This document shows positions 15-60,312 of a stretch of 64,000 bases of DNA, piece by piece (position 1 is the first letter of the stretch; each line of letters begins with the position of its first letter). Source of the DNA: a virus. The position numbers and the translations under genes are program-made. The DNA lies in the IMG/VR virus record IMGVR_UViG_3300010397_000007, positions 5,042-69,041 of that record; one strand, given 5' to 3'. A model generated the notes under the pieces. The model worked only from the letters and a program-made list of their open reading frames with translations, had not been told where the DNA came from and searched no databases.

Positions 15-743
15 GTGAAGGCAACAGACGTTGACGACAAGGCTATGTCTCAACTAGCCCTCATGAACGACTACGGTTGGAATGTCTACGCTGGCGTTAA
101 TCCGCGCCCTCATTCCTGCTCTGACGTCGCCGAGATTGTGGCGCTCCACGTTGACGTTGACGGGCTGCCGAAGAAGGCAGATGTGCCGGAGCCTACGCTC
201 ATCGTTAATAGTGGACATGGGCTGCATCTTTACTGGGAGCTAGGGAAGGCTGTCCCGCCAAGCGAGAGCATAGCAGATATCAATCGCGGCCTAGCACAGG
301 CTGTTGGTGGGGATCCGCATTGTTGCGATATCACACGCATCCTTAGGGTGCCAGGGATGACGAATCAAAAGGAGCCGAAGAGGGTAGTGACGATCGAGCT
401 TGAGAGTGAGAAGAGATGGCGGGTTGAGGAGTTTGAGGGGCTGGGGATGGCGATTGACGATAGGGCCTCCGGCCCGACCCCTCACAAAGAGATGAGGGGG
501 CTTATTTTCGCCGACGCTATTAAGCGTGACTCTTATTTGCGGAGGGCTTGGAACGGAGGCTTTGGTGACGCGGCTTCAGACTCCCGCCACATCGCAATCC
601 TCCGTCTCCATGCGCTCGGATTCGATCAAAGCGTAATTGAGGAGTTAGTCGGTAGTCATCGTTGGTACAACACGAAGACGAAGAGAGTTACGCCCCGCGA
701 GAAGGCAATCGCTGACGTGAGAAGGGTGCTGGCGAAGGCATGA
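15..743 (+). CDS. RepB-like (RSF1010 RepB'/AEP superfamily) DNA primase; N-terminus possibly incomplete at window edge
   Basis: Motifs VDVD, VNSGHGLHLYW and DITRILRVPG typical of RepB_primase domains, followed by a small helical C-terminal domain. Confidence 0.8.
   Translation: MKATDVDDKAMSQLALMNDYGWNVYAGVNPRPHSCSDVAEIVALHVDVDGLPKKADVPEPTLIVNSGHGLHLYWELGKAVPPSESIADINRGLAQAVGGDPHCCDITRILRVPGMTNQKEPKRVVTIELESEKRWRVEEFEGLGMAIDDRASGPTPHKEMRGLIFADAIKRDSYLRRAWNGGFGDAASDSRHIAILRLHALGFDQSVIEELVGSHRWYNTKTKRVTPREKAIADVRRVLAKA
463..489 (+). repeat. Hairpin-CTCACA element copy 1 (inside primase gene)
   Basis: GGGCC-TCC-GGCCC gaccc CTCACA AAG. Confidence 0.9.
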
Positions 744-1282
744 AAGCTAGAAGAAAATACGCAAGAATCGGCGAGAAGGTTAGGGTTATCGCCAACAAGG
801 ATTTCGAGCGCTGCGGCTATCCACTAACTACTCTCGATATTCAGAACAAGTATTCGAAAGAGATTGCGGAAATGGTTGACAAAATAGGAGCGGCTATCGG
901 GGTCGATATTTGGTCGGATCGAAGTCGCCTAGGAAACTGTCTGCATAAAGGCTTAGCTTCCTATTTCCTTAATAAAGATAAGTTCGGTGGCCCCGAACGT
1001 AAGATTTACGAGCGTGACCGAGCCGAGTATGAATTCAATATTGCCGGAAAAGAGGGCATTGTCACTGCTCGAAAGTTTGTGAAGACAGGCACCCGCATCC
1101 CCGGACATAGCTATACGAGTTACGAGGGAGAACGGGATTACGATCCGCCGTATTTGCACAATGAAAAGACACATTGCATTTACACGCTAGAGATTGTTGG
1201 TGGGCCGCTATTTCCGGTGAACGTCCCCGCCGAAAACACAAGCTTAGTTTCTCTGTGGGGTTTTGGGCCGGAGGCCCTATAG
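740..1282 (+). CDS. hypothetical protein
   Basis: 180-aa ORF with ATGA overlap to the primase stop. Confidence 0.75.
   Translation: MKARRKYARIGEKVRVIANKDFERCGYPLTTLDIQNKYSKEIAEMVDKIGAAIGVDIWSDRSRLGNCLHKGLASYFLNKDKFGGPERKIYERDRAEYEFNIAGKEGIVTARKFVKTGTRIPGHSYTSYEGERDYDPPYLHNEKTHCIYTLEIVGGPLFPVNVPAENTSLVSLWGFGPEAL
1251..1277 (-). repeat. Hairpin-CTCACA element copy 2 (CCCACA variant)
   Basis: Top strand CTC TGTGGG gtttt GGGCC-GGA-GGCCC. Confidence 0.85.
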
Positions 1283-1383
1283 CAAAACATGTGCGATTTT
1301 GTTCCGCTAATTCTAATTCTAGTTTTCTTTGCAATTATGTTTTTACTTCCTCGCCCTAAAGGTAAAAGTAAAGGGCCAGATTC

Positions 1384-2862
1384 TTGGAGCTTTTAGTGGC
1401 AACCGCAACCTTAGATCGTATCTGGAGCCCTTATCAAGAGGCCATCTTCTCGTGGGCTGAGAAGGGTCAAGGCTCAGCAGTTATCGAAGCCGCAGCCGGC
1501 GCTGCTAAGAGTACGACGATCATTGAGGTAGCAAAACGTTTGCCATCCGATGACTCAATCCTCTTCGTCGCGTTCAATAAGCGGATCGCTGACGACCTCA
1601 AACGCAAACTCCCTGCCTACATCTGCGCGATGACCCTTAACGCCCTCGGCTTCCGTGCATGGCGATCCCACGTTGGTAAGAACGTTGAGGTAGATAGTTA
1701 CAAGGTCACGGCTCTCATCAAGCAGATGTCGGACGATTCAAGCAGTGACTTCAGGAGTGGGGTTAAGAAGCTCGTTGACTTAGCAAAGCTGATGGGCATC
1801 GTACCCAATGGCATCGATGCGGCAGGTTTGGTGGACGATGATACCGAGACTTGGCGTTGGCTGATCGATGAGTATGATATCTTCTTCGGCCCTAACGAGA
1901 AGAAGGATTGGGCCATCGCTCTCGCCCGTCGTGTCCTCGCTGAGAATATTCGTCTCGGCTCACAAAAGATCGATTTCAACGATCAACTCTATCTCCCCGT
2001 CATCTTCGGCGCAGAGTTTACAAAGTATGATTGGGTCTTTGCGGACGAGGCCCAGGATATAAGCAACCTACAACTCGAAATGTTGCGACGCTCCCTGGCC
2101 AAGAATGGCCGTTTCGTTGGCGTTGGCGATTCCGCGCAGGCCATTTACGGCTGGCGTGGGGCGAGCAGAGATGCGATTCCTAATTTGGGCCGCACGTTCG
2201 ACGCTCAGAAGTTTCCTCTCTCCATTTCTTACCGTTGTCCCCGTTCGGTAGTGGCGCTGGCTAGGAAGTATAGCCAGAAGATTGAGCCTTGGGAGAAGGC
2301 AGCGGATGGAAAGGTTGAGGAGTTAGAAAGCTGGGTTCCTTCACTATTCGGCCCCACAGATGTCATCCTCTGCCGTAACAACGCTCCCCTCGTCGCTATG
2401 GCGTTCAAGCTCATTCGGGCAGGGAAGCCCTGCAAGGTCTTAGGGAGAGACATTGGGACAGGACTCGTTTCTCTGGTAAAGAGAATGCGGGCTATTTCCC
2501 TTGACGATTTGAAGGCCAAGCTTGACGCTCACGTTGACAGAGAACGTAAACGTTTAGTTGACGAACCTGAGAAGATAGTCTCCCTCTTAGATCGCGTCGA
2601 TACGATACGGATATTCGTATCGGAGATGCCGTGGGGAACTAGCGTGGAGCAGCTTTGTTCAAAGATCGAGGGGATGTTCGCAGAGGATGGTCAAGAGGGG
2701 ATGTTACTCCTTAGCACAATCCACAAAGGGAAAGGAATGGAGTGGCCGCGAGTCTTCATTCTCGATCAACATTTAATTGGAATGCGAGAGCCGGAGCCTA
2801 ACCTTTACTACGTTGCGGTAACGCGGGCCATGAAAGAGCTTTACTTTATCAACTCCAAATGA
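1384..2862 (+). CDS. UvrD/Rep-like superfamily 1 ATP-dependent helicase
   Basis: SF1 motifs: AAAGAAKST (I), VAFNK (Ia), DEAQD (II), VGDSAQAIYGWRGA (III), YRCP (IV), STIHKGKGMEW (V), YVAVTRA (VI). Start may be a few codons downstream. Confidence 0.9.
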   Translation: MELLVATATLDRIWSPYQEAIFSWAEKGQGSAVIEAAAGAAKSTTIIEVAKRLPSDDSILFVAFNKRIADDLKRKLPAYICAMTLNALGFRAWRSHVGKNVEVDSYKVTALIKQMSDDSSSDFRSGVKKLVDLAKLMGIVPNGIDAAGLVDDDTETWRWLIDEYDIFFGPNEKKDWAIALARRVLAENIRLGSQKIDFNDQLYLPVIFGAEFTKYDWVFADEAQDISNLQLEMLRRSLAKNGRFVGVGDSAQAIYGWRGASRDAIPNLGRTFDAQKFPLSISYRCPRSVVALARKYSQKIEPWEKAADGKVEELESWVPSLFGPTDVILCRNNAPLVAMAFKLIRAGKPCKVLGRDIGTGLVSLVKRMRAISLDDLKAKLDAHVDRERKRLVDEPEKIVSLLDRVDTIRIFVSEMPWGTSVEQLCSKIEGMFAEDGQEGMLLLSTIHKGKGMEWPRVFILDQHLIGMREPEPNLYYVAVTRAMKELYFINSK

Positions 2863-3932: not shown

Positions 3933-4171
3933 CCGCTCTCTCCGATTACAAGACTCACAACGGCACCTCGCTCCAAGCCCTTGCTGATTTCCTACTTGAG
4001 CAATGTGCTCAGGGGGGTTGTCGGGGGATATTTCTCATCGTCAAGCCTGAGGGTGGGGTATCGATCGTGACCAATGTGAAGGGGCAATTGCTCCCCGATG
4101 TGTTGGATGGGATGGCCCTAGAGATGAGGATGTCGTTGGCTACGGAGAAGAAGGCAGAGGAGCCCTCCTAA
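3929..4171 (+). CDS. hypothetical protein
   Basis: ATGA-coupled ORF. Confidence 0.7.
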   Translation: MTALSDYKTHNGTSLQALADFLLEQCAQGGCRGIFLIVKPEGGVSIVTNVKGQLLPDVLDGMALEMRMSLATEKKAEEPS

Positions 4172-4172
4172 C

Positions 4173-5297
4173 GTGCAAGGCCCAATCGCGCAAGCCCTCT
4201 CGGCTAGACTGGGCCAACCCTCTCAGCATCCCCTCGTCTCTCAGGGATTCAGCCCTAACATCGTTGAACCCTTTGGGAATAATAGCCTCGGCATAATGAT
4301 CGTCGGCGAAGCCCCAGGGGAACAGGAAGACGATAGCGGCCAACCTTTTGCCCCGTGGGCTCCAGCCGGCTCCGTCCTCGCTGCCGCAATCCGTAGAGCT
4401 GGTTGCCGTCGTGAGCAATTCGTAATCACCAACGTCGTCCCTGCTAGGCCTCCGAAGAACTGGCTAGAAGGCGCTCCTTGGGAGGCGGAGGCGATTAGCT
4501 GGGGCCTTGAGCATCTTGACGAGGCTGTGAGGGTGTATAAGCCTCGCGCCATAGTGGCGCTAGGTAGCATTGCGAGCCGGGTAACGACGGGATTAAGCGG
4601 CAGTAAGTTAGGCGTATCCCATCTCAGCGGCTACGCCATTCCATCCCCTCGATATAGCATCCCCGTCATCCCCTGCTTCCATCCATCCTTCCTCCGTCGT
4701 GGCGCGATGGCTCTGCTTGGAGTCATGGTTAATGCTCTAAGGAAAGCGAAGAAGGTCGCGGCGGGGCAGATTATATGCGTAGAGCCCCCGGTGGATAGCC
4801 CTCCTGAAGGCTACATCTTGCATCCTGACCCCAGCGTTGCTGAGTCATTTTTGCGTGACGCCAAAGAAGCAAAATATATTTCCTTCGATATTGAGACCCC
4901 TTATTCGACAGATGAGGAGAGCGCGGAAGAAGTAGAAGAAGAACATCGCATAAAGTCGATTCAGTTCTCTTTGGCGCAAAGCAGTGGAATATTTATGCCT
5001 TGGCGTGACGATTTCATTCCCATTGCGAAAGAAATCTTGGCATTACCGAGACCGAAACTTGGATGGAATATTTGGCATTTTGACAACCCAGTCCTTTATG
5101 AGCACAGTTGCAAAATCGCTGGCGAACAACACGACTTGATTTGGGCTTGGCATCACTTACAGCCCGATTTGCCGAGAGGGTTGCAGTTTGCTGCCGGCCA
5201 GTTGGGTTGGCCGTATCCATGGAAGCATCTTAGCGGCTCCGATCAGGAATTTTACGGAATTGTGGACGTGGAGGTACTCCAATGGATGGTTGCTTAA
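4173..5297 (+). CDS. DNA polymerase A N-terminal half: family-4 uracil-DNA-glycosylase-like domain plus 3'-5' exonuclease (SPO1-type architecture)
   Basis: IVGEAPG, ITNVV..RPP.N, IVALG, HPSF (UDG-F4); ExoI FDIET, ExoII GWNIWHFD, ExoIII YGIVD. Confidence 0.85.
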   Translation: MQGPIAQALSARLGQPSQHPLVSQGFSPNIVEPFGNNSLGIMIVGEAPGEQEDDSGQPFAPWAPAGSVLAAAIRRAGCRREQFVITNVVPARPPKNWLEGAPWEAEAISWGLEHLDEAVRVYKPRAIVALGSIASRVTTGLSGSKLGVSHLSGYAIPSPRYSIPVIPCFHPSFLRRGAMALLGVMVNALRKAKKVAAGQIICVEPPVDSPPEGYILHPDPSVAESFLRDAKEAKYISFDIETPYSTDEESAEEVEEEHRIKSIQFSLAQSSGIFMPWRDDFIPIAKEILALPRPKLGWNIWHFDNPVLYEHSCKIAGEQHDLIWAWHHLQPDLPRGLQFAAGQLGWPYPWKHLSGSDQEFYGIVDVEVLQWMVA

Positions 5298-5752
5298 TAC
5301 CTCTTGGCCGAAAAGGTTTTGCAATTGTTGATTCAGAAGATTACGAACGTGCTATGCAATACAGTTGGGTTATGGTTCCAAAACGTCGTCGCCTATACGC
5401 AAGAAGAGAATGGCGCATTGGAAATAGGCTGCGCCGTTACGAGTATCTACATAGTTTTATTATGCGTTCACGCGAGCAAATAGATCACCGAAATCTTGAC
5501 GGACTTGATTGTAGAAAAGCTAACCTGCGTTTTGCGACCGCGCAACAAAATGCGGCCAATAAGGAGCGGCGTCCCGGAGGTTCCAGTAAATACAAGGGAG
5601 TGTATTGGTCAAAGTCAATAAACCGTTGGGTTGCGCGACTAAGAACTAAGCACCTCTGTTCATCTACAAACGAAGAAGATGCGGCGAGAGCATACGACGA
5701 GGCAGCCCTAAAAATGTATGGGGAGTTTGCGAGGACAAATGGGTTTGTTTGA
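5282..5752 (+). CDS. HNH-AP2 homing endonuclease
   Basis: LHSFIM..IDHRNLDGLDCRKANLR (HNH); SKYKGVYW...AARAYD.AA (AP2). Confidence 0.9.
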   Translation: MDGCLIPLGRKGFAIVDSEDYERAMQYSWVMVPKRRRLYARREWRIGNRLRRYEYLHSFIMRSREQIDHRNLDGLDCRKANLRFATAQQNAANKERRPGGSSKYKGVYWSKSINRWVARLRTKHLCSSTNEEDAARAYDEAALKMYGEFARTNGFV

Positions 5753-7187
5753 GCGAATGCAAAAGGCCAACATTTATAGGGGCTATTTGCAACATGTGGT
5801 TAAATTAAATCCTGTGTTAGAGCGGGTTTCTGCTAGAGGCATGCCTGTAAATCAGGAAGGTTTTGATTCTGTTGTCGCCCGTCTCCGTGGTGATTACATG
5901 GCGGAGAAGGAGAAGATGCAAAGCCTCGTGCCTGACGAGATTAAAGCAAAGAAGGTTTACAAGAAGACCCCAAAGGCAAGGCTCGAAGAGTGTACACAAG
6001 TTGACGGAGTTTGGGTACGTACTCTACCTTGGACTCCTTCGAACAAGGGCCTCTGCGCTTACATTCGCCACCGTGGCCTCAAGGTTCCAAAGAACTTGAA
6101 GACCGAGAAGGACACGACGGCGGCGATCGAGATTGCCCGTCTCTCGCGAAAGACGAAGGATCCACTCTATGGAGCCGTGATTCAATACCGTAAGGCTCAA
6201 ACCGTCCTAACCAACCATGTAAAGAATTGGAAACCTGGGCCTGACCAACGAGTTCATACATCTTTCTATTTCGACCCTGCTACAGGCCAACTATCCTCTC
6301 GCCGTCCGAACGTTCAAAACGCCCCAAAGCACGACGATCCCGAGTTCGGAGGCTACGCCAAAGTTTTCCGTTCCATGATTAAGGCTCGTGAGGGGCATAC
6401 GATTCTTGAGTTCGACTTCAAGTCCTTCCACGCTCAGACTCTCGCTTTCGAGAGTGAAGACAAGGACTACCTCCGTCTCGCCAAGCTTGACATCCATTCC
6501 TTCCTCGCATCTCATCTCGTCCACGACCCGAAGGCCGGAGGCTGTCTCGCTTGGTCGGATGATGAGCTTCGAGAGTACCTAGCTTGGATCAAGAAGAATC
6601 ACAAGTTCGTCCGTGACTATAAGGCAAAGCGAGCCATTCTTGGCTACGGCTTTGGCATGGGCTATCGCAAGCTCTACGACATGAATCGTGAGTCCTTCGA
6701 CGGGCAGAAGGACGCCAAGAATACCCTCGACATGCTTGACTCTGTCTTTCCCGTGACGAAAAAATGGCGGGAGACGATACGGCATAAGGCTAACGATCAA
6801 GGTTACCTGATCTCCCGTCACGGGTACATTCGTTACTTCTGGGAAGTCTTCAGAGAGAGGAACGATGGCTGGACGCCAGGAGATGACAGCGAGGCCGCTG
6901 TAGCGTTCCTGCCGGCGAATGACGCCTTCGGGGAGATTAAGGATCGAATGCTTACGATCGCAGAGCGGGGACTCGACGAACGCTATGGCCTCATCAATAA
7001 CGTCCACGACTCCCTTTTGTTCGAATGCCCCGACCCTTTAGTCGAGGAGGCGGTTGGCACAATCAAGCCCCTCATGGAGAGCCGCTCGCAAGTCCTTATT
7101 TCTCCTAAGGTTGCACCGCTGGGTTTAAGCGTTGAAGTAGATGTCCAAGCAGGCCGTGACTGGGCCAGCCTGCGGGGAGTCGCGTAA
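5739..7187 (+). CDS. DNA polymerase A polymerase domain (C-terminal half, atypical motifs)
   Basis: TGQLSS..PNVQN, motif A DFKSFH, DIH, motif B KRAILGYGFGMG, motif C VHDS. ATG 5739 has a GAGGA RBS. Confidence 0.88.
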   Translation: MGLFERMQKANIYRGYLQHVVKLNPVLERVSARGMPVNQEGFDSVVARLRGDYMAEKEKMQSLVPDEIKAKKVYKKTPKARLEECTQVDGVWVRTLPWTPSNKGLCAYIRHRGLKVPKNLKTEKDTTAAIEIARLSRKTKDPLYGAVIQYRKAQTVLTNHVKNWKPGPDQRVHTSFYFDPATGQLSSRRPNVQNAPKHDDPEFGGYAKVFRSMIKAREGHTILEFDFKSFHAQTLAFESEDKDYLRLAKLDIHSFLASHLVHDPKAGGCLAWSDDELREYLAWIKKNHKFVRDYKAKRAILGYGFGMGYRKLYDMNRESFDGQKDAKNTLDMLDSVFPVTKKWRETIRHKANDQGYLISRHGYIRYFWEVFRERNDGWTPGDDSEAAVAFLPANDAFGEIKDRMLTIAERGLDERYGLINNVHDSLLFECPDPLVEEAVGTIKPLMESRSQVLISPKVAPLGLSVEVDVQAGRDWASLRGVA

Positions 7188-9807: not shown

Positions 9808-10160
9808 CCCTCAAGACGACAAAAGGCTACCCGCGAATCACTGCCGGCCCACTTCGCAATCAATATCTCCATCGTGTCGTAGCGGAAGCCATGTTGGGAC
9901 GGAAGCTGAATAAGGATGAGGAAGTCCATCATCGTGACGGCGATCGGCTTAACTTCCACCACTCCAATTTAATGATCCTCGGAGAGTATGACCATGGCTG
10001 GGTGAGCAGCCGGCAAGCATGGTTCATGCGCCAGAAGGATAAGCAGGAAAAGCGAGACTGGGATGAAGAGATCATCGCAGCCAAGGCGACTGGAAATGCC
10101 TGGGCCTACGCCGACGGACACATAGAAGAACGTTGGGAAATAAGAAAGGCAGCCTTTTAA
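9783..10160 (+). CDS. HNH endonuclease
   Basis: YLHRVVAE..LGR.L...EEVHHRDGDRLN....NL. Confidence 0.85.
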   Translation: MSRYKRGVTLKTTKGYPRITAGPLRNQYLHRVVAEAMLGRKLNKDEEVHHRDGDRLNFHHSNLMILGEYDHGWVSSRQAWFMRQKDKQEKRDWDEEIIAAKATGNAWAYADGHIEERWEIRKAAF

Positions 10161-10168
10161 GCTGCCTT
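10146..10168. terminator. hairpin at the convergence of the replication and late operons
   Basis: AAGGCAGC-cttttaa-GCTGCCTT. Confidence 0.55.
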
Positions 10169-10235
10169 CCGCCGTACCCTGAGTACGGCCCTAAGTGCCT
10201 CCGTGGGAGGCTGCCCTCCATTGGGGGAGGGAACA

Positions 10236-10607
10236 TTACATAGACGTTGGAGTTGGAACCGGCGCGGCGTTGAGAATGGTCACGATGGAACTGATGTAAT
10301 TCTGCACAGCCGCATCGCTTCCGTCTTTGCCTGCGTCTTTCAAACCCTGTGAAATTAGAGGGCCAATAGCAGCCACGACAGCCGCCAATTTCTGCGCTCC
10401 AGTACCGCTAGACTGCCCAATGGCTGCAAACTTCGCTTCCGTAGTTAGAATCTGCTGAACGGTAGCGTTATAAAGCGAGCCATACTGCGGCGCGTATAGA
10501 CTAATGGCTACGGCTCCAGCCGAGGCTGCCCACGGCATGATGAAGTCAAACACGACCTTAAAGTCATGCCCAATTGCTTTGAACACATTGATAAACTTAT
10601 TACTCAC
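10236..10607 (-). CDS. lysis-cassette protein (holin-like or hypothetical)
   Basis: Last gene of the late operon, amphipathic/hydrophobic helices. Confidence 0.55.
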   Translation of the reverse strand: MSNKFINVFKAIGHDFKVVFDFIMPWAASAGAVAISLYAPQYGSLYNATVQQILTTEAKFAAIGQSSGTGAQKLAAVVAAIGPLISQGLKDAGKDGSDAAVQNYISSIVTILNAAPVPTPTSM

Positions 10608-10821
10608 TTTTCACCTCTTTTGGTATGGCTGCGTTAGGATGACGTTCTACAACCTTGTTTGACACGACATGAAAGAAACGGTACACCCAGTCGTAAAGCT
10701 TCTCACCCCATGGACGCGGATCGCCAGGGGCAGGCATCGTCTCAACGGCTGCTACGTAAAAGTAAAGTAGAGCGCCGCCGATCACGACGTAATGTGCGCT
10801 AATGAATTGCGCCAAGTTCAC
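10600..10821 (-). CDS. putative holin
   Basis: 73 aa with an N-terminal TM helix, adjacent to the endolysin. Confidence 0.55.
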   Translation of the reverse strand: MNLAQFISAHYVVIGGALLYFYVAAVETMPAPGDPRPWGEKLYDWVYRFFHVVSNKVVERHPNAAIPKEVKSE

Positions 10822-10845
10822 TCCTAATTATACCGTAAAACTAAA

Positions 10846-10872
10846 GCGGCTCCGCCGCGACCCCTCACAAAG
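10846..10872 (+). repeat. Hairpin-CTCACA element copy 3
   Basis: GCGGC-TCC-GCCGC gaccc CTCACA AAG. Confidence 0.9.
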
Positions 10873-10893: not shown

Positions 10894-10920
10894 TCTTGTG
10901 AGGGTTTGCCCCGGAGGGGC
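10894..10920 (-). repeat. Hairpin-CTCACA element copy 4
   Basis: Top strand TCT TGTGAG ggttt GCCCC-GGA-GGGGC. Confidence 0.9.
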
Positions 10921-10932: not shown

Positions 10933-11289
10933 TCAAATAACATCAAACTCCCTCTCCCCTGAATCCCACCAAGACTTACGATCCCCTGGGCCCAATACTA
11001 AGCAACCCTCGCTGGCATTGTGAGTCTTGTTATCGCCGTGGATCCGAAATGCGCTTCGTCCAAAGGTGTTAGTCCCGTCGCAAGGGATGAGGTTAATAGT
11101 GAAAGGGCCGAGCTTAGGATGATGATATGGCTCTCCGTCCATCCTCCATCGCCCTCTTGGTAGTGGCCCGTAGTCTTTCGTGGCTTCCCATGAAGGATTA
11201 TTCCTCCCGAGCCCGCGACCGGAGTAACCTTGAGCAAAGAAGGCTCCGTCACGAAGCAGTTCTCCAGTCTTTTGTTGGTAGATAAACAT
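10933..11289 (-). CDS. DUF2778/Tlde1-family L,D-peptidase; putative endolysin
   Basis: GYSG, GPLPRG.W, GRSAFRIHGD and ASEGCL (His/Cys dyad). Confidence 0.85.
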   Translation of the reverse strand: MFIYQQKTGELLRDGAFFAQGYSGRGLGRNNPSWEATKDYGPLPRGRWRMDGEPYHHPKLGPFTINLIPCDGTNTFGRSAFRIHGDNKTHNASEGCLVLGPGDRKSWWDSGEREFDVI

Positions 11290-28691: not shown

Positions 28692-28766
28692 GTAGGCTTA
28701 TCCTTTTCAGGAGGCGGAGGAGTAGCCTACGGAGTCCTGTACGTTCTAATTTTAACAGACGCTAAA

Positions 28767-28793
28767 GGTGCTCCGCACCAACCCCTCACAGAA
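28767..28793 (+). repeat. Hairpin-CTCACA element copy 5
   Basis: GGTGC-TCC-GCACC aaccc CTCACA GAA. Confidence 0.9.
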
Positions 28794-29588: not shown

Positions 29589-29795
29589 ATGATGAAAGCA
29601 AGAGTTAGATTTGCGCTATTCGGCTTTGACTTTCCCTCGTTAGAACAATTCGACTTTATCAAAAGTTTCTGTGAGACAAAAAAGTGGGACTGGCAACTCC
29701 TAAGTACATACCAAGCGTTGACCGTAAGATCAGCTTGGAAGAAATCACAAAAGAGTAAGCCCGATCCTAAGCAACAGGGGACGCTCTCTCTGTGA
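29589..29795 (+). CDS. hypothetical protein
   Basis: 68-aa ORF downstream of the methyltransferase. Confidence 0.45.
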   Translation: MMKARVRFALFGFDFPSLEQFDFIKSFCETKKWDWQLLSTYQALTVRSAWKKSQKSKPDPKQQGTLSL

Positions 29796-30291
29796 GGGTT
29801 TGAGGCGGAGCCTCTTGGACGTCAGCAAGAACTTTATCGCGCTCGGGGCCTAAGCGGCGATGGGTTTCGGGGACTAGGGGCCGACGAAGTATTACACATT
29901 CCTGACATGTGACTTCGTATCCTGAGCGTTTGACAATTTCAATATAGTCGGTGAGTTGCTTGGGAACGGCAATGTAAGCCTCCAACGCCCCAGCCGCCGC
30001 GCCCTCGTAAGCGAGGATCCGTTCCATGCCCACGACTGCTGCGTAGATGTCAGGCCCTTTCGCTTCGGGATTATGGATGAAGGGATCAATGACCGCAACG
30101 ACTGCGACCTTCCCTGTCAAGGAACCAATCAGTTCCTCGCCCTTATCCGATACCACAGTCTCAACTCCTGGCGCTCTCCAACCATGTACGACTTCAAGGT
30201 CAGCGGGGAGATAGCACCAACGCCATTTATCAAGCTGCTCAATATCCTGTTCATCGACAGGGCGGAAGGTCATCTTTGAGAAGCTGCTCAC
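29767..30291 (-). CDS. GNAT-fold virion assembly protein (T7 gp13-like position)
   Basis: MTFRPVDEQD, LIGSL, KRSGYE; lies between nozzle and ejection genes. Confidence 0.5.
   Translation of the reverse strand: MSSFSKMTFRPVDEQDIEQLDKWRWCYLPADLEVVHGWRAPGVETVVSDKGEELIGSLTGKVAVVAVIDPFIHNPEAKGPDIYAAVVGMERILAYEGAAAGALEAYIAVPKQLTDYIEIVKRSGYEVTCQECVILRRPLVPETHRRLGPERDKVLADVQEAPPQTLTERASPVA
29788..29814 (-). repeat. Hairpin-CTCACA element copy 6
   Basis: Top strand CTC TGTGAG ggttt GAGGC-GGA-GCCTC. Confidence 0.9.
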
Positions 30292-39298: not shown

Positions 39299-39325
39299 AG
39301 GGCTCCGCCCTGAAGGCTCACAAAG
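39299..39325 (+). repeat. Hairpin-CTCACA element copy 7
   Basis: AGGGC-TCC-GCCCT gaagg CTCACA AAG. Confidence 0.9.
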
Positions 39326-39396: not shown

Positions 39397-39423
39397 CTTT
39401 GTGAGGGTTTGCAGCGGAGCTGC
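39397..39423 (-). repeat. Hairpin-CTCACA element copy 8
   Basis: Top strand CTT TGTGAG ggttt GCAGC-GGA-GCTGC. Confidence 0.9.
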
Positions 39424-45144: not shown

Positions 45145-45151
45145 TACAATG

Positions 45152-45178
45152 AGGCCTCCGGCCTAACCCCTCACAGAG
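45152..45178 (+). repeat. Hairpin-CTCACA element copy 9 (unpaired)
   Basis: AGGCC-TCC-GGCCT aaccc CTCACA GAG. Confidence 0.9.
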
Positions 45179-45609
45179 CAAGTAAAGCCCTCTGTACTCG
45201 AACGGCGGGGATAAAATACTGCTAGCGGCTTGGCTCGTTTGATGAACTTGGTAAACCGATAGCGGTAAAGATATCCGCCGCCAGTCATGGGCAAATTTGG
45301 AAGTAGCCCAATTTCAAGCTCGCCGCGCATTTCGTTGTGCGGAGCAACATGCCAAGTGATTCCAGCCCAGCTAATTCCTAACAGAGGCGTGCGGATAAAC
45401 CATTCGTCAGCACCCCGGCGCTCAAATGCAAAATAGGCGTGCAGACAAATCCAACGATGCTTTTTAGGCACCCACTTAGACCAGAACCAACGCGCAGGCC
45501 AAGAGCTTCGTTCTTCATGCAACTGTTTTTGTAGAACATCTTTCTCGTCCCATGCCTTTTTAAGTTCTACTTCCAATTCGTCCCTATCTACGTCCTTTAG
45601 GTAGTCCAT
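45163..45609 (-). CDS. hypothetical Trp-rich protein
   Basis: ORF between terminase and portal. Confidence 0.6.
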   Translation of the reverse strand: MDYLKDVDRDELEVELKKAWDEKDVLQKQLHEERSSWPARWFWSKWVPKKHRWICLHAYFAFERRGADEWFIRTPLLGISWAGITWHVAPHNEMRGELEIGLLPNLPMTGGGYLYRYRFTKFIKRAKPLAVFYPRRSSTEGFTCSVRG

Positions 45610-48476: not shown

Positions 48477-48500
48477 GGATCAATTGTAATGGATGCGACA

Positions 48501-48527
48501 GGGGCTCCGCCCCAAACCCTCACAAAG
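48501..48527 (+). repeat. Hairpin-CTCACA element copy 10
   Basis: GGGGC-TCC-GCCCC aaacc CTCACA AAG. Confidence 0.9.
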
Positions 48528-48601: not shown

Positions 48602-48628
48602 CTTTGTGAGATCTTGCGGCGGAGCCGC
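48602..48628 (-). repeat. Hairpin-CTCACA element copy 11
   Basis: Top strand CTT TGTGAG atctt GCGGC-GGA-GCCGC. Confidence 0.9.
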
Positions 48629-48930: not shown

Positions 48931-49131
48931 TTAGTACAAAACCTTCTCCGCAACTTTCGCGGACTTCTTTGCCCCATTCACCGCAACCTTCGGGGCCTTA
49001 GCAACGACCTTGGTCGCCTTCACAACAACCTTCCCTCCTGGCTGCACAACGTAGTGATAACTCAGGCGAGCGAGGCCGGCGTGGGCGAAGGAAGCAACGA
49101 ATAGCAATGAGACTGCAAAATATTTCTTCAT
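48931..49131 (-). CDS. small secreted basic protein
   Basis: AGGAG RBS; signal peptide MKKYFAVSLLFVASFAHA; Lys/Val repeats. Confidence 0.7.
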   Translation of the reverse strand: MKKYFAVSLLFVASFAHAGLARLSYHYVVQPGGKVVVKATKVVAKAPKVAVNGAKKSAKVAEKVLY

Positions 49132-49241
49132 AATCCGTGTCTCCTAAAAAGGGGCGAGAGCATCGACCAGTCCAATGACGCTCTCGCCGGAGGGTTATTT
49201 GACCTTCCAATCTTACAATAACGTAACGTCGGGGTCAAGCA

Positions 49242-49622
49242 TTATCTTGACTTTTTAATCACCTTCTCCGCCTCGTCCATCCAGTCAGCACACTCTTTGA
49301 GGGCCTTCCTTCTCCCCTTAGGGCCAGGATCAAACTGCGCGATACTTTGCTGCCAACGATCCTTCTCATCCTCGCCCCTCCTCGTAGCCCAAGCCTCTGC
49401 TGTGTATACTAGCGTCCCCTTCGAATCGCCCCCTCGCACACTGAACATAACCAGCTCCACGCTGCAACCAAACTTCTCAACCTCCGGAGGAAACGTCGCG
49501 AACCGTCCTTCTCCTGCGTAAACGGGCAGAACGGCTAGAGATGAGAGGAAAAATGCGGTCAAAATGAACTTCTTGAGCATAGTGATTGGGGGCCGGAACA
49601 TAAGAAATCTCCCTACTTCCAC
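49242..49622 (-). CDS. hypothetical exported protein (start possibly MLKKF)
   Basis: Signal-peptide-like segment. Confidence 0.55.
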   Translation of the reverse strand: MEVGRFLMFRPPITMLKKFILTAFFLSSLAVLPVYAGEGRFATFPPEVEKFGCSVELVMFSVRGGDSKGTLVYTAEAWATRRGEDEKDRWQQSIAQFDPGPKGRRKALKECADWMDEAEKVIKKSR

Positions 49623-50262
49623 ATCTTACGCCTACTCGACGATGAATGTGACGCTAGCGTGACGCTAAATTGTTGATCTTATCGATCACTCTCAAGCCCC
49701 TGTGGGACGACTAAATTGGTCGTATATCGGGAAATGGCCTTCGTGTTTCTACGTTAATTCCAATTTCCCCTGGCGGGGTAGAGGGAACTTCGCGTGGAAA
49801 ACGACCGGGGGCCTATCCTGCCCCTCCCCTACTATCGAAAAGCGAAGGCGCGGCGAAGGATGCAAGGCCGGCGGCGGGCGGCGGCGGGGCGCACCGGCGG
49901 GGCTCCGAGTGGGCGGCCATTACCCTCAGACTTTCCCAAGCTTCTCATAGTCCAATAGAATCATAGCTTTACAGGCGAGTAACTTAGGTTGCGTACCTAA
50001 GGTACCGGGGAAACCGGCTCGATTCCGGCTCGATTCCAGCCCGATTAAACGTGGGGAATTATCGTGGGGAATTTTGAGGTGCTATGCGACAATTACCGCA
50101 GGTTAACAGTGTTAAGTGAGGCGACGTTCCATTAGCATCTCTAATCATTTTTCACTAATGTATGAATGAAATTAATGTCTACTAAATTGGTAGACATTCT
50201 TCTGGGCAGAGATGTAGTGCAATTCGAGTGCCATCTATTTTTCGTTAGCTTGACGTTTTAAC

Positions 50263-50291
50263 TTGACGTCTAGTCAACGACTAATTAACGT
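50263..50291 (+). promoter_or_regulatory. early sigma70-like promoter
   Basis: TTGACG-17 nt-TAACGT upstream of the DUF932 gene. Confidence 0.6.
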
Positions 50292-50344
50292 AGGTGCAAG
50301 ACCAGACCGAACTAAACGCGGCTGGCAAAAGGAGAATTAAACAA

Positions 50345-51211
50345 ATGTCATATCTACACGATTTCACAGTAGGCGCAAGAGCTAACAGGATTCAGACTCC
50401 CCTTACCCTTGACATGGTTCGCCAGTATGCACCCTCTGCTTTCGCCACTCACGCTCACGAATCGAGATCTGATCGTTACACCTACATTCCAACGATCAAC
50501 GTTATTGAGGGGATGATTAAGGCGGGTTTTCAACCCTTCTCAGCGTCTCAGTCAAGGTCACGCATTGAGGGGAAAGCAGAGTTTACCAAGCATATGATCC
50601 GCTTTCGCCATATGGACTTGACCTCTCCAATGGTAGTTGGGGACATTATTCCCGAAGTTGTGCTCGTTAACTCTCACGATGGCACGAGCGCTTACAAGCT
50701 CATTGCTGGCATGTTCCGCCTAGTCTGTTCGAACGGTCTCATGGTGGCGGACTCAACGACGGCGAGCGTCTCAGTCATGCACAAGGGGAACATTGTGGCG
50801 GATGTCATTGACGCGTCGAATGGGATCATTACTAGCTCACAGAAAGCTTTGAATGCCGCTAGCGCGTGGTCTAATCTGCAACTGACAGACGGTGAGCAGA
50901 GTGCTTTTGCTGAGGCTGCTCATACGGTGAGGTTTGCTGATGCTGAAGGGAAAGTTACGACGCCAATCACTGCGGCTCAATTGCTTCGTCCACGGCGCTC
51001 TGATGATAATGGGGCTGATCTTTGGAAAACTTTTAATCGCGTGCAAGAGAATGTTATTAAAGGCGGATTGCATGGTATACAACGTGATGCCAATGGCCGC
51101 CGGTTACGCGCTGTCAGCACAAGGCAGGTTAAGGGAATCGATCAGGATGTGAAATTGAATCGCGCCCTGTGGACTCTGGCGGAGCGTATGGCAGAGCTTA
51201 AGGCAGCGTAA
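50345..51211 (+). CDS. DUF932/DUF945-family protein (start MSYLH)
   Basis: HESRSDRY.YIPT, KHMIRFR, NSHDGTSAY.L.AG.FRLVC.NG, RR.DD...DLW..FNRVQEN, LNRALW; AGGAG RBS. Confidence 0.9.
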   Translation: MSYLHDFTVGARANRIQTPLTLDMVRQYAPSAFATHAHESRSDRYTYIPTINVIEGMIKAGFQPFSASQSRSRIEGKAEFTKHMIRFRHMDLTSPMVVGDIIPEVVLVNSHDGTSAYKLIAGMFRLVCSNGLMVADSTTASVSVMHKGNIVADVIDASNGIITSSQKALNAASAWSNLQLTDGEQSAFAEAAHTVRFADAEGKVTTPITAAQLLRPRRSDDNGADLWKTFNRVQENVIKGGLHGIQRDANGRRLRAVSTRQVKGIDQDVKLNRALWTLAERMAELKAA

Positions 51212-51212: not shown

Positions 51213-51268
51213 AGTCGAAACGTGGCCTAATTGCCACGTCTCAGCGTTAGGCGCTGACTGATGAGACT
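51213..51268 (+). ncRNA. type II hammerhead ribozyme 1 (predicted cleavage after GUC at 51240)
   Basis: AGTC-GAAA-CGTGGC ctaatt GCCACG-TC-TCAGCG ttagg CGCTGA-CTGATGA-GACT; full catalytic core and three stems. Confidence 0.9.
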
Positions 51269-51284
51269 AAAGGGAGGTTTTCTG

Positions 51285-51536: not shown

Positions 51537-51590
51537 AGTCGAAACTCGGAGCAATCCGAGTCCTAGCATTACGTGCTAGCTGATGAGACT
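51537..51590 (+). ncRNA. type II hammerhead ribozyme 2 (predicted cleavage after GUC at 51562)
   Basis: AGTC-GAAA-CTCGGA gcaa TCCGAG-TC-CTAGCA ttacg TGCTAG-CTGATGA-GACT; stems covary relative to copy 1. Confidence 0.9.
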
Positions 51591-51637
51591 AGATCTCCTA
51601 GATCATTTGAGAGACAATTTGAAAATGGAGTGCCAAT

Positions 51638-56031: not shown

Positions 56032-57000
56032 CTAAAGGAGACGAAGGTAGCGGGTGTCCTTGAAGGTGCCTTGCTTCTCCATTAATTTTGCGGTTACTGC
56101 TGTTTTGAGGAGATCGCTGGTGAAACGGCGGCTCTTTCCGCAAAGCTTCATTGCTTCGGAGAATGTGAGAGGTTGGTTGAGGGGAAATTTGAGGATTAAT
56201 TCCTTTTGAAGTTTCGTTAGGAGTTCGACTCCGGTAAGAGGTTTGTAAGCGATCGGTAAGCCTGTGTACTCGTCAAAGATTCGCTCTAGTCTCCATGGGC
56301 CAATATCGCCAAAGCCTCGACGTGCTGCACGGACTACTACCTGATCCTCTTTATGGGAGTTCTCGAACCCGATACGGATGTCAGATTGGTTGGTTAGCGC
56401 GAGGGAACCGGAAACGTTTTGCATCCAAGTGAGGACTGGAGTAGAGAGGTCTTCGAGTGGCGCTCGTGGAGCTTCTTCGTTATCTTTACGGAGATGATGA
56501 AGGAAGATTGTTGTTGCGCCGTATTTGCCTAATTGTTTCATCCACGTCATACGTAAGGCTGCGGCATGGGACTCGGTCTCGGCCTTGGGATCCATGTAGC
56601 GCAAGGTATCGATTACGATGAGCTTTGGTGAGTAGAGTTTTGCGTCAGCTACTATTTGATCCGCTGTGGGAAATTCCAGCCGGCGTAAGTTTTCAGGAAT
56701 ACCAGGGAGACCGATGGCTCCAGATATTTCACCACACTTAATATAGAACTCACGAAGATTGTTCTCATAGTCCGCATAGAGCACTGTGCCGGGGCTGATG
56801 TTGAAGCCTAGAAAAGGGATTCCAGCGGCAATACAAATACTGAGTTGCATGGCGTAGGGTGTTTTGCCTTGACCACTATCGCCAGCAAGGAGGCAGAGAC
56901 TTTGTGAGGGGATGAAGTCTTCGACGAGATAGGAGATTCTATCTAGTTTGTCGATAGCTTGACTAACTTCTGACGGAGAAAGAGAGTAGGATTTTGACAT
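56032..57000 (-). CDS. RepA-like (AAA_25, RecA/DnaB-type) replicative helicase with C-terminal wHTH
   Basis: YLVEDFIP, LLAGDSGQGKT, VLYADYEN, LIVIDTL, FLHHLRK, GSLAL. Confidence 0.85.
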   Translation of the reverse strand: MSKSYSLSPSEVSQAIDKLDRISYLVEDFIPSQSLCLLAGDSGQGKTPYAMQLSICIAAGIPFLGFNISPGTVLYADYENNLREFYIKCGEISGAIGLPGIPENLRRLEFPTADQIVADAKLYSPKLIVIDTLRYMDPKAETESHAAALRMTWMKQLGKYGATTIFLHHLRKDNEEAPRAPLEDLSTPVLTWMQNVSGSLALTNQSDIRIGFENSHKEDQVVVRAARRGFGDIGPWRLERIFDEYTGLPIAYKPLTGVELLTKLQKELILKFPLNQPLTFSEAMKLCGKSRRFTSDLLKTAVTAKLMEKQGTFKDTRYLRLL

Positions 57001-57189: not shown

Positions 57190-57597
57190 ATGAAATTCAA
57201 AGAAGCGAAGGGGCATATCAGGAGTTTCATGCAAGCGCATTACACCGATGAACGGTTGGCGATGTTGCTGGCACATGCACAGAGTGGAAGGTTAGCGTTC
57301 GATTCTTGCTGCTGCTTTATTGGCGTTCCTAACGCTCCCCATGCGCTATGCGGCAATAAAGAACGTGGGCCTATTGATCCAATTCATCATCGGAACGTTC
57401 CAATTAAATTGGAAGAGGAATACTACAAGGCAGAAAATGCTTTCCTGCACTTGGAGACAAAACATTGGAAAGCATCAGACGGCGACTCCATACGCCGCCG
57501 CATTCTCATTCCCATGATTAAGGCGGAGATGAAGAGGCGGGAGCGGGTGAAATTTGTTGAAGAGTATAAGGCGGAATTGGCACTGGTTACTACGTAG
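57190..57597 (+). CDS. hypothetical protein
   Basis: GGAGG RBS. Confidence 0.75.
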   Translation: MKFKEAKGHIRSFMQAHYTDERLAMLLAHAQSGRLAFDSCCCFIGVPNAPHALCGNKERGPIDPIHHRNVPIKLEEEYYKAENAFLHLETKHWKASDGDSIRRRILIPMIKAEMKRRERVKFVEEYKAELALVTT

Positions 57598-57612: not shown

Positions 57613-57639
57613 AGCGCTCCGCGCTAAAACCTCACAGAA
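57613..57639 (+). repeat. Hairpin-CTCACA element copy 12
   Basis: AGCGC-TCC-GCGCT aaaac CTCACA GAA. Confidence 0.9.
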
Positions 57640-57655
57640 GAAGGGGAGACTTGAG

Positions 57656-58556: not shown

Positions 58557-58858
58557 GTATGTTCAGCAGTAGCCAAGTCGCCTCGATCCTTGGGATCAAA
58601 CTTTGGAAGTTGAATCGCCTCCTCTCTCATTACATGTTGAAATCATCTGGCAGCCTCGGGCAAGGCAGAGGTTCTCGACGAATATTCAACGAAGAGGATG
58701 TTCGACAGATAGCGATTGTAATGTTCCTTAATCGTGACGGTTTCACGCCGAAGCTGGTGAATAAAATGCAGCAGACTAGCGTTGAGGACTTGGTCGCACA
58801 GGCGGTAGAACTTTCTTACAAGCTAAACCTTTCAGCAATTGCCCCCGCCGAGAAATAA
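58547..58858 (+). CDS. MerR-like HTH protein, probable excisionase
   Basis: FSSSQVASILGI...GRGSRRIFNEEDV; directly upstream of the integrase; start uncertain. Confidence 0.65.
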   Translation: MSLGMFSSSQVASILGIKLWKLNRLLSHYMLKSSGSLGQGRGSRRIFNEEDVRQIAIVMFLNRDGFTPKLVNKMQQTSVEDLVAQAVELSYKLNLSAIAPAEK

Positions 58859-58931
58859 CATGGCATCCTTAGACCACTCTTCGATACAATTCCCTCTGGC
58901 CGTCGGATCATTAGGTGAAAGAAGGAACCTG

Positions 58932-60062
58932 ATGGCACGCAGACGTTATCAGAGAGGAACTTTGATTCAGGAGGGGAAGACGCCGACATGGAAGGCAAGG
59001 TATCTGGAGGACGTTGTCCTTGCCAATGGAACGCGGAAGCGAGTCCACAAGAAAGTTGTACTCGGTGGGCTCAAGGAGTATCCAACAAGACGCCTCGCGA
59101 TGCGAGCAATGGAGCAAGTCATTGCGGAGGTTAATAGCCTTAGCTATAAGCCAAAGCACCTCATCTCCTTCTCCTCCTTCGCTGACAAATGGGAAGCGAT
59201 GGTAATGCCTAATCACAAGCCCTCGACTCAAGCGGTGGAACGGGGACAGGTGAAGGCTTTGAAAGGATGGTTTGGAGAGATGGCGATTGGGGAAATTGAG
59301 ACGGAGATCTTGCAGCACTGGATTACATCTCTCCGCTTAAGCCCGAAGACGGTTAGGAACTTTGTGGCAACGCTACGCATGATGTGGAAGAGTGCGAGGG
59401 CTTGGGGCTACGTGAAGACTAATCCCTTCGAGGACTTGATCCTGCCGGCTCGCGGGCTAGCGAAGGCTCCTTCTCTCTCACCAGAGCAAGCGAGAGAGGT
59501 TATACGGAGGGCAGAGGAACCGTACAAGACGATGTTCTGGATTGTCGCTGAGACGGGGATGCGAGGTGGGGAAGTTTGTGGCCTGAGGGTGGAGGATATC
59601 GACATTGCCTCTCGCACCATTCATATCAGGCAGAGCGCTTGGAATGGCAAGGTGCAGACACCTAAGACCGCTAACGCTATCCGTCACTTCATCATCTCAG
59701 CTCAACTTGCTGCGCATATCTCCACTGGCGTCAGGCCGATCGCTGGCTTGATGTTCAGCGTCAACGGTCATGCGATGGATAACCATAACGTCGTGCAGAA
59801 GCATTTGAGACCTATCCTTCAGGACATGAAAGTGTATGAGCCGAGGATGGGGCTCCATAGCTTCCGGCATGGAAACTGTAGCGCCATGGATAGCTTGGGG
59901 ACGCCGGCTAAGGTTAGGCAAGAGAGGGTAGGCCACGCGGACTTTAAGACTACGATGGGCTACACGCACGCATTCTCCCAGGATCACCGCGAGGTTGCGG
60001 ATAAGCTTGGGACGATGTTTGATCCTGGCCATGACAGTAGTCTTGGCCTAGCGGGCGATTAG
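58932..60062 (+). CDS. int: tyrosine integrase (start MARRRYQRG)
   Basis: TGMRGGE, PKT, HSFRH, VGH and YTH catalytic residues; AAGGA RBS. Confidence 0.92.
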   Translation: MARRRYQRGTLIQEGKTPTWKARYLEDVVLANGTRKRVHKKVVLGGLKEYPTRRLAMRAMEQVIAEVNSLSYKPKHLISFSSFADKWEAMVMPNHKPSTQAVERGQVKALKGWFGEMAIGEIETEILQHWITSLRLSPKTVRNFVATLRMMWKSARAWGYVKTNPFEDLILPARGLAKAPSLSPEQAREVIRRAEEPYKTMFWIVAETGMRGGEVCGLRVEDIDIASRTIHIRQSAWNGKVQTPKTANAIRHFIISAQLAAHISTGVRPIAGLMFSVNGHAMDNHNVVQKHLRPILQDMKVYEPRMGLHSFRHGNCSAMDSLGTPAKVRQERVGHADFKTTMGYTHAFSQDHREVADKLGTMFDPGHDSSLGLAGD

Positions 60063-60260
60063 CGTTCTTAACCCTTAACTGTCCCAAATATTTGAAATTT
60101 GGGCAGAATTTTAAGGGTGTATGAAGGTAGGTTACCTTCGGGCTACGGCGGAGAATTGAATAAATCCTGTTGATTCTACGGCCACGTCGTAGCGCGGAAG
60201 GGGTATAAATGGGTGATTTTGGGTTAGTTCTTGGCCCAAGGATTTGCCCAAACGCTTAAG
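60063..60260. other. putative attP region
   Basis: Non-coding DNA after int with repeated CCCAA(A)/TTTGGG arm-type-like boxes near 60083, 60098, 60218, 60235 and 60247. Confidence 0.45.
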
Positions 60261-60285
60261 GGATGAATCGAGAGGGCATCTCTTT

Positions 60286-60312
60286 CTCTGTGAGGTTTTG
60301 TGGCGGAGCCAC
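60286..60312 (-). repeat. Hairpin-CTCACA element copy 13
   Basis: Top strand CTC TGTGAG gtttt GTGGC-GGA-GCCAC. Confidence 0.9.

Follow-up and report, generated by a model that had tools for sequence, protein, structure and literature searches.

We describe a family of 13 short DNA elements in a 64,000-nucleotide (nt) stretch (hereafter the window) of an uncultivated phage, IMG/VR virus record IMGVR_UViG_3300010397_000007, which comes from soil metagenomes. Each element has the form [5-bp stem]-TCC-[stem']-N5-C(T/C)CACA, that is, a stem of 5 base pairs (bp) closed over a TCC loop and followed, after a 5-nt spacer, by a conserved box. The family is discrete and every copy is intact; the selected features are the pairing of the stem, the C-TCC-G centre, the length of the spacer and the box. 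Most copies are arranged in convergent pairs, and one of them lies inside the gene of a RepB'-like primase. As argued below, we tentatively place first the reading that the 13 elements are hairpin-type priming signals for this primase. The record is a 69,041-nt contig in which the first 123 nt recur as the last, indicating a circular assembly; the 5,041 nt that fall outside the window were scanned as well and hold no further copies, so that the whole record contains the same 13.

An earlier note, made from the letters of the window alone, had listed these 13 copies, and all of their coordinates and all 11 stem sequences given there were confirmed. Their enrichment over shuffled controls, which the note had only estimated, was borne out: CTCCG-N9-CTCACA was matched 13 times in the window, whereas 100 shuffles gave 0.04 matches on average. 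Twelve of these matches are copies of the family; the thirteenth (3940-3959) lacks a stem and does not belong to it. The remaining copy (1251-1277, minus strand) has a perfect stem and the box CCCACA, with one mismatch, so that the CTCACA box, claimed for every copy, is found in 12 of 13. Perfect 5-bp hairpins with a TCC loop occur 14 times on the two strands, and in 13 of these C(T/C)CACA follows exactly 5 nt on (the exception is at 18121). Eleven different stems are used, GGGCC and GCGGC twice each; read on the GGA strand, the centre is GCGGAGC in 9 of the 13 copies and CC-GGA-GG in 4. A covariance model scored the 13 copies at 49-61 bits, while the next best match in 557 kb reached 20.9 bits. 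A relaxed scan revealed no decayed copies: its seven matches were the 1277 copy and six sites with three deviations each, which look like chance. This genome does tend to have the upstream CNAWR motif and the purine-rich tail that the note had attached to the pattern, but conservation of the tail in a relative is poor. An ATG is present 5-9 nt past the box in 6 of the 13 copies; the small open reading frames (ORFs) starting there have only 7-8 codons and are not conserved, and were dropped as candidates.

The stems of the elements covary. This was analysed in a set of 21 elements, the 13 of the window and 8 from metagenome relatives (see below). All 105 of the 105 stem cells hold standard pairs, 27 of them with both sides changed, and neither one-sided changes nor G-U/G-T pairs were seen. 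Four of the five stem pairs covary, and the closing C-G pair never varies. The covariation score was reached by none of 500 shuffles, and controls slid away from the stem paired at 30-50%. The proposal of the earlier note, that selection acts on a folded single strand and not on a duplex operator, is thus well supported by the perfect pairing, by changes that are only compensatory and by the lack of G-T pairs; a duplex operator, which leaves the stem covariation unaccounted for, was dropped as a candidate. The lack of G-T pairs fits either a cruciform, in which both DNA strands fold, or a fold made in DNA and not in RNA, and with about 65 independent cells is suggestive. The folding energy of a single mini-hairpin, -4.2 kcal/mol with standard DNA parameters, is not significant alone.

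With the TCC strand taken as an arrow, seven copies point right (plus strand) and six left (minus strand), and 12 of the 13 form six convergent pairs, with no divergent or tandem pair and with the copy at 45152 single. In three tight pairs (10846/10920, 39299/39423 and 48501/48628) the boxes are 27, 77 and 80 nt apart, and three other pairs (463/1277, 28767/29814 and 57613/60312) enclose plus-strand genes. All elements but one are found at junctions of ORFs (called mechanically, homology backing only part of the calls), some overlapping a few terminal codons. The pair 463/1277 encloses the C-terminal part of the primase and an ORF of 180 amino acids (aa): element 1 (463..486, plus; GGGCC-TCC-GGCCC-GACCC-CTCACA) lies within the primase ORF and encodes linker residues, and element 2 (1254..1277, minus; GGGCC, box CCCACA) faces it, overlapping ORF 740-1282 at its final codons and stop. 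The first tight pair consists of element 3 on the left (10846..10869, plus; GCGGC) and element 4 on the right (10897..10920, minus; GCCCC), the latter 13 nt past the stop of the minus-strand ORF 10933-11289. Element 5 (28767..28790, plus; GGTGC) and element 6 (29791..29814, minus; GAGGC) are the left and right borders of a cassette with a plus-strand methyltransferase gene (28997-29575) and a 68-aa ORF; element 6 overlaps the 3' end of the minus-strand ORF 29767-30291. In the second tight pair, the left member, element 7 (39299..39322, plus; AGGGC), is 7 nt past the stop of the plus-strand ORF 39089-39292, and the right member, element 8 (39400..39423, minus; GCAGC), overlaps the stop of the minus-strand ORF 39423-39608. 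The third is made of element 10 (48501..48524, plus; GGGGC), its left member, which is upstream of the minus-strand gene 47817-48476, and element 11 (48605..48628, minus; GCGGC), its right member. Element 12 (57613..57636, plus; AGCGC), 16 nt past the stop of ORF 57190-57597, and element 13 (60289..60312, minus; GTGGC), which has an ortholog in the metagenome contig L085, border on the left and right a cassette of three small ORFs and an integrase gene. The sole unpaired copy, element 9 (45152..45175, plus; AGGCC), is between the minus-strand ORFs 45163-45609 and 44752-45144. A sigma-70-like sequence, TTGACT-18-TACAAT (10 of 12 positions), is found at 45121-45150 on the plus strand and ends 1 nt before the element 9 hairpin; it is the best such match in its 20-kb stretch, is antisense to the terminase operon, and may be due to chance.

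From pair to pair the gaps are 10.0, 18.4, 10.1, 9.2, 10.4 and 10.8 kb. The six pairs are spaced more evenly than random points on a circle (P 0.004, or P 0.03 for all seven loci including the single copy). Since the single copy was left out after the fact, we treat the ~10-kb regularity as a lead. This regularity, the convergent pairing, the cassettes between pair members and the fixed-distance -10 hexamers described below all go beyond what the earlier note had seen.

Outside this genome the family has a narrow distribution. The strict element pattern had no match in IMG/VR, where a search with a single protein, the large terminase TerL, confirmed nothing either, and in the genomes of 185,579 species it had one match, which was stemless, and none in host genomes. 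In the Joint Genome Institute (JGI) metagenomes it found five short contigs. Related contigs were where the earlier note had proposed to look for the family, and it is indeed present there, with perfect stems in all five. Four of the five align with the window around matching sites, with neighbouring genes at 67-86% identity and short element-bearing pieces at 85-94%. The fifth (L084, 2.5 kb) shares only the element with the window and has other genes: its element (GGGGC stem, 2406-2429) comes 77 nt after two plus-strand ORFs end, neither of them related to the window. The element family is, then, also present in another gene context. Compared with their window counterparts, the eight contig elements differ at 3 of 192 core positions, all of them in the spacer (2 of 168 when L084 is left aside), while the aligned flanks and neighbouring genes around orthologous elements are 67-92% identical.

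Three of the contigs have tight convergent pairs, with 18-27 nt between the boxes and with spacers that are not conserved. In one of them (L082) the counterparts of 28767 and 29814 adjoin, 27 nt apart, and the ~1-kb methyltransferase cassette is absent; because these counterparts are adjacent, the cassette of the window sits between two elements that in the relative form a tight pair. The metagenome contigs break at elements. Assembled contigs from two DNA sequencing runs, one possibly of the source sample, were compared with the window as well; at contig level they gave no starts, ends or nicks, and the short contigs of the second run left three of the four element-bearing bins uncovered. As single strands, tight pairs are predicted to fold either as mini-hairpin, box-to-box stem and mini-hairpin or as one long hairpin, with folding z scores of -1.4 to -6.2, the pair of contig L081 not being significant.

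By TerL, the closest relatives are at 81% and 62% identity. Five near-complete relatives (G001-G005; TerL 40-55% identity) have no comparable hairpin-plus-box family, and no analogous repeat family was found at 80 TerL loci. At one pair junction, the flanking genes are contiguous in two of the three relatives in which both genes were found (G001, G002 and G005), from which it follows that in this lineage the pairs were added to an operon that was compact. The five element-free relatives differ from the window in many other genes too.

The C(GGA)G mini-hairpin had been placed by the earlier note in a class common to bacteriophage N4 promoters and to ssiA of plasmid RSF1010, and published descriptions bear this out. 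The early promoters of N4 are described as hairpins of the template strand that span -17 to -5, have a 5-bp stem and a GGA loop, read GCGGAGC, are contacted at -11G and -8G and extrude from supercoiled DNA, and ssiA as containing a CCGAAGG mini-hairpin (PMC13037366, PMC4496689, PMC3715699). The reported priming sites of RepB', the primase encoded by RSF1010, are ssiA and ssiB, a pair of inverted repeats of 40 nt each that lie on complementary strands. On ssiA the enzyme binds the 5' tail of 6 nt and the base of the hairpin formed by nt 7-27, starts at T32 within a GTG, and makes a DNA primer of 11-12 nt (PMC8567376). As far as these descriptions go, the phage elements have in common with IncQ ssiA/ssiB a C(GNA)G mini-hairpin, a specific single-stranded flank, a GTG and inverted copies on complementary strands, two in the plasmid, as well as a matching primase family encoded by the same replicon.

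The primase gene of the phage covers positions 1..743 of the window on the plus strand; the full ORF (genome 4969-5784) encodes 271 aa and matches Pfam PF16793 (RepB_primase) at E 1e-6. The only sequence matches of this protein in the PDB were to RepB', at E 0.15-0.3. A predicted structure built on 17 homologues has two domains (pLDDT, the predicted local accuracy, 89), and its best fold match in the PDB is full-length RepB' (3h20, E 4e-10), over both domains; a cyanophage PrimPol domain is next, and the third is 3h25, the catalytic domain of RepB' on ssiA DNA. [quoted passage not shown] The primase had no match in any of the five element-free relatives.

Element 1 encodes residues 179-187 of the primase; the model has a single disordered stretch (177-187), and they lie inside it. 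In this linker, which otherwise varies, S..PHK is retained by the two closest homologues (62-63% identity); the S corresponds to the TCC loop and PHK to CCTCACAAA. A-S-G in this phage is G-S-A in these two homologues, a change that fits a compensatory swap in the stem, and the residues of the homologues are compatible with intact elements, as far as can be judged from the protein sequences. The S..PHK motif was absent in fourteen more distant full-length homologues.

A near-consensus -10 hexamer is found at a fixed distance, 12-13 nt beyond the hairpin on the GGA strand and outward from the pair, in 3 of the 13 copies; the other 10 are without it. The three hexamers, all on the minus strand and all preceding minus-strand operons, are TATAAT (10827..10832), 13 nt beyond the element 3 hairpin and with the GTG start of ORF 10600-10821 5 nt on; TAAAAT (28749..28754), 12 nt beyond the element 5 hairpin and ahead of the operon starting at 28691; and TACAAT (48483..48488), 12 nt beyond the element 10 hairpin and with an ATG at 48476 6 nt on, a leaderless-type arrangement. 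From the background hexamer frequency, the probability of such a coincidence is ~5e-6, or 1.4e-4 if 30 offsets are allowed. TANAATTR octamers occur nine times in the window, and three of these are the element-linked hexamer sites. Both hexamer and distance are kept in the two orthologs of two that could be tested (L081 and L082), with the intervening bases changed; the L081 ortholog reads TAAAAT, 6 nt and ATG. A canonical -35 is absent at all three copies with a -10, and other promoter-like sites of the phage have TTGACA. The hairpin would sit at about -37 to -25 relative to the start of transcription. A start codon 5-6 nt after a -10 is seen at 3 of 102 ORF starts, namely those of 10600-10821 and 47817-48476 (minus strand) and at 7197, and the mRNAs of the first two appear from the sequence to be leaderless.

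Ordinary intrinsic terminators, with 12-bp stems and T-rich tails, are present on the minus strand at 10144-10170, between the converging replication genes and small minus-strand genes, and at 36097-36124, just after the major capsid gene. The elements themselves are not terminators of this kind: none of the copies has a U-tract, and the real terminators lie elsewhere in the phage. Two further candidates were rejected, a lambda-type nut site because the CUCUUU-like tract is not kept in a relative, and a CRP-like half-site because the second half-site is absent.

Which function best accounts for these observations? The reading that we put first, though tentatively, is priming by the phage's own primase. 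It covers the DNA-type covariation, the hairpin class, the GTG box, the pairs on complementary strands, the even strand split and the spacing, as well as the co-occurrence of the elements with the primase and the copy inside the primase gene. The elements would be one family of DNA-level mini-hairpin sites able to extrude as small cruciforms. A reader protein, most likely the RepB'-type primase, would recognise the invariant loop with its closing pair and, across the 5-nt spacer, the TGTGAG/CTCACA box, and of the stem it would require only that it pair. Each element would serve as a single-strand initiation signal: the enzyme would be anchored by the hairpin of the GGA strand and start at the GTG within TGTGAG, with DNA synthesis running in the direction from CTCACA to the purine tract. 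The face-to-face pairs would act like ssiA and ssiB of IncQ plasmids, repeated about every 10 kb round the 69-kb genome. The three -10 hexamers could be linked to this scheme if a promoter firing away from the hairpin leaves negative supercoils behind it, which would favour extrusion.

Several observations speak against such a role in priming. Compared by description, ssiA is 40 nt long, with a 21-nt hairpin, a GAA loop and a GTG 4-6 nt 3' of the hairpin, whereas the phage hairpin has 13 nt, a GGA loop and, on the GGA strand, a GTG that is 5' of the hairpin, which is not the geometry of ssiA. IncQ plasmids are described as having one ssi pair, inside oriV, and the phage has six pairs and a single copy distributed over the genome. 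In our analysis, the elements are not members of the ssi family, even if they should prove functionally alike. The fixed-distance -10 at three copies is explained by priming only through the added assumption about supercoiling. GC skew is positive along the whole plus strand, without a clear origin-terminus switch with which the orientation of the elements could be compared, yet the sites are equally divided between the strands. The even spacing partly depends on omitting the single copy, and the joint absence of primase and elements is seen in five genomes that differ in many genes. Finally, 80 viral loci with distant RepB'-like primases (26-46% identity) showed no convincing analogous family or hairpin pair; these loci are incomplete, and when run on the window itself the pair scan picked up just one of its three tight pairs. 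Two two-copy matches at these loci were judged to be chance, and one model match had E 0.33.

A more far-reaching form of the priming reading is that the phage programmes priming genome-wide, its primase starting only at extruded paired hairpins, three of which are wired to outward -35-less promoters that aid extrusion. It would extend the IncQ ssi principle from one plasmid origin to an entire viral chromosome; we regard this extended scheme as doubtful. Priming and transcription need not exclude each other.

The second-ranked explanation, in our estimate nearly as likely as priming, is that the elements mark the boundaries of transcription units and that each pair insulates neighbouring operons. 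The TCC-sense copy, met first by RNA polymerase, would stop or attenuate it, and the far, GGA-sense copy would be the upstream half of a -35-less outward promoter, acting through a bound activator or through cruciform extrusion; with the 13-nt hairpin looped out, the T-TGTGA box would come to lie 18-19 bp from the -10. Cassettes between the copies would be shielded from lytic transcription. Such an arrangement would resemble the PeSLs (promoter-early stem-loops) of T4-type phages, described as cassettes of a sigma-70 promoter and a stem-loop that flank variable genes (PMC2839356, PMC4122927). The -10 hexamers, with their fixed distance, their place ahead of minus-strand operons, their conservation in both testable orthologs and their lack of a canonical -35, are expected if the elements are boundaries, and so is the location of all elements but one at ORF junctions. 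At 10920, 29814, 39299, 39423 and 57613, a TCC-sense copy adjoins the 3' end of a gene running in its own direction, and the cargo is a methyltransferase that is absent from a relative and an integrase with a MerR-like protein. The likeness to PeSLs, in their published descriptions, extends to small, repeated intergenic cassettes of stem-loop and promoter around variable genes and to a bare cassette in a relative that lacks the gene. However, PeSLs have a full sigma-70 -35/-10, stems that tolerate G-T pairs, a variable stem position and direct repeats that recombine; the phage elements have a -10 in 3 of 13 copies, no canonical -35, a fixed geometry, strictly Watson-Crick stems and inverted flanking copies, and the relative without the methyltransferase cassette keeps both copies, unlike excision at PeSLs. 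Boundaries also leave much of the family unexplained. Ten copies have no -10 and none has a U-tract, although the phage uses U-tract terminators elsewhere; covariation free of G-U, with an invariant loop and box, is not what an RNA terminator or a duplex operator would be expected to give; and one conserved copy is inside the primase gene. Copies within operons have both orientations (45152 and 1277 versus 463 and 57613), relatives run the same operons without a boundary at the matching junction, and no transcription factor or polymerase that would read a hairpin was found.

The elements might also be selfish palindromic repeats, of the REPIN or miniature inverted-repeat type, with no role for the phage, which we find improbable. 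REP/BIME sequences and REPINs are short palindromes flanked by a conserved sequence, which often form inverted doublets and lie between genes inside operons. The inverted doublets of the phage, one of them where the genes of relatives are contiguous, the in-frame copy inside a gene, the confinement of the family to a narrow lineage and the breaks of metagenome contigs at elements would all suit such repeats. REPs, however, are chromosomal, occur in hundreds of copies that are near-identical in any one family, and go together with a RAYT transposase, whereas the phage has 13 copies with differing stems and no copies in host genomes. Every pair has different stems, and what is fixed is only the loop with its closing pair, the length of the spacer and the box, contrary to what a recent burst would leave; orthologous copies have hardly changed although their flanks diverge, and none has decayed. 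No transposase or RAYT-like protein was found among ~50 ORFs scanned with Pfam (not every small ORF was included), and the strict pattern had only the one stemless match in the genomes of 185,579 species.

The hairpin itself, equal to that of N4, raises the question of N4-type promoters read by a phage-encoded, hairpin-dependent RNA polymerase, with the GGA strand as template and a start in or near CTCACA toward the purine tract and the ATG. The elements and the N4 early promoters, as these are described, share the 5-bp stem, the GGA loop, the C-G closing pair, variable outer stem bases for which pairing is enough, and a conserved single-stranded stretch beside the hairpin. All 13 copies fall within the 5-7-bp stem and the 3-nt loop with a central purine given for such promoters; GCGGAGC, which has the G at -8, is read in 9 of the 13. 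In addition, 6 of 13 copies have the ATG past the box, and the left element of each cassette points into plus-strand genes; after 57613, GGGGAG and the ATG at 57656 follow within 20 nt. We nonetheless judge promoters of this type decidedly unlikely. N4 is described as having three copies, at one genome end and upstream of early genes, and a 3500-aa polymerase as their reader, whereas the phage elements are on both strands round the genome, many of them antisense to genes, with the box 5 nt from the hairpin, where N4 has its +1. No RNA polymerase was found with PHROGs among the 10 largest unexplained proteins or with Pfam among ~50 ORFs, nor was a DxDGD motif; a 1498-aa protein without a lead in PDB or Atlas is still unexplained, so that absence of a polymerase is not proven. 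In the relatives, the 18-27-nt spacers of the pairs would give tiny inward transcripts, and the ATG and purine tract are not kept there.

Very unlikely, in our view, is recognition by a nicking enzyme of the phage, at sites comparable to the localized single-strand interruptions known from T5, phiKMV-like phages and phage tf: copy numbers are alike, an HNH-AP2 endonuclease is encoded and several copies have GAC-N8 or N10-CTCCG, loosely like the phiKMV-type consensus CGACxxxxxCCTA/CTCCGG, but the GAC spacing differs from phiKMV by one base either way, known sites are reported on one strand only (PMC3517423) against the 7/6 split here, and the covariation is left unaccounted for.

Among asymmetric sites repeated in the short intergenic gaps of temperate phages, the stoperators of cluster A mycobacteriophages, one of which overlaps a promoter -35 region, also come to mind. 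Stoperators are duplex sites of fixed sequence, in one orientation relative to transcription, and leave the covarying stem and the convergent pairs unaccounted for.

The gene map, drawn from homology, is that of a temperate, podovirus-like phage, and weak hints point to a host among the Acidobacteriota. A replication block on the plus strand comprises the RepB'-like primase, a UvrD-like helicase, a UDG-like protein, a DNA polymerase A ORF, an exonuclease and a dNMP (deoxynucleoside monophosphate) kinase. The HNH-AP2 endonuclease ORF (5282-5752), which may be a homing endonuclease, is between the UDG-like ORF (4173-5297) and the DNA polymerase A ORF (5718-7187) and overlaps both. Long structural operons on the minus strand include the large terminase (45612-47249), the portal (42332-44752), the major capsid protein (36187-37473), an SU10-type adaptor (33633-34352) and giant tail genes that reach down to 10933. 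The integrase gene (58839-60062) is in the early and lysogeny region. A minus-strand gene at 56032..57000 encodes an AAA_25 ATPase (Pfam PF13481, E 6e-22), a candidate replicative helicase of a family that we take to include RSF1010 RepA; this protein had no match in PDB or NCBIfam. The phage itself had no match among 50,697 phage records (megablast with 25 kb and tblastn with the 1498-aa protein), and Rfam, at the gathering threshold, found nothing in the window, which also has no tRNAs.

A gene-poor stretch carries iteron-like tandem repeats: 21 nt x 2.4 (48984-49033), 11 nt x 3 (50014-50046) and 13 nt x 1.9 (50245-50269). It falls within the 2-kb bin of most negative GC skew (six 2-kb bins are negative in all), and the detrended cumulative GC skew has its minimum near 50.7 kb; we consider 48984-50269, which begins ~0.4 kb from the 48501/48628 pair, a candidate replication origin. 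The DUF932 gene (50294-51211) encodes a protein 87% identical to that of a gene in relative G004, with which shared structural genes are 30-55% identical, and its sequence looks like that of a recently exchanged gene. A 32-nt direct repeat (78% identity; 51238-51269 and 51560-51591) is found on both sides of a small ORF and has an internal palindrome and CTGATGAG; Rfam is silent there.

In the papers drawn on here, DNA hairpins that are read as single strands are described for very few systems, namely the N4 early promoters, IncQ ssiA/ssiB and the origins of G4-type phages. Here, an uncultivated temperate phage carries 13 mini-hairpins under strong selection, in ordered pairs, beside a RepB'-like primase. 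If the primase reads the elements, they would offer a simple test system for the choice of start sites in this primase family, and priming at them would be a first case of site-programmed priming across a phage genome. If instead they gate transcription, they would represent promoters or insulators built on an extrudable hairpin without an N4-type polymerase. On either reading, accessory genes (the methyltransferase and those of the integrase module) sit at places marked by the pairs, a point of relevance to the uptake of new cassettes by phage genomes.

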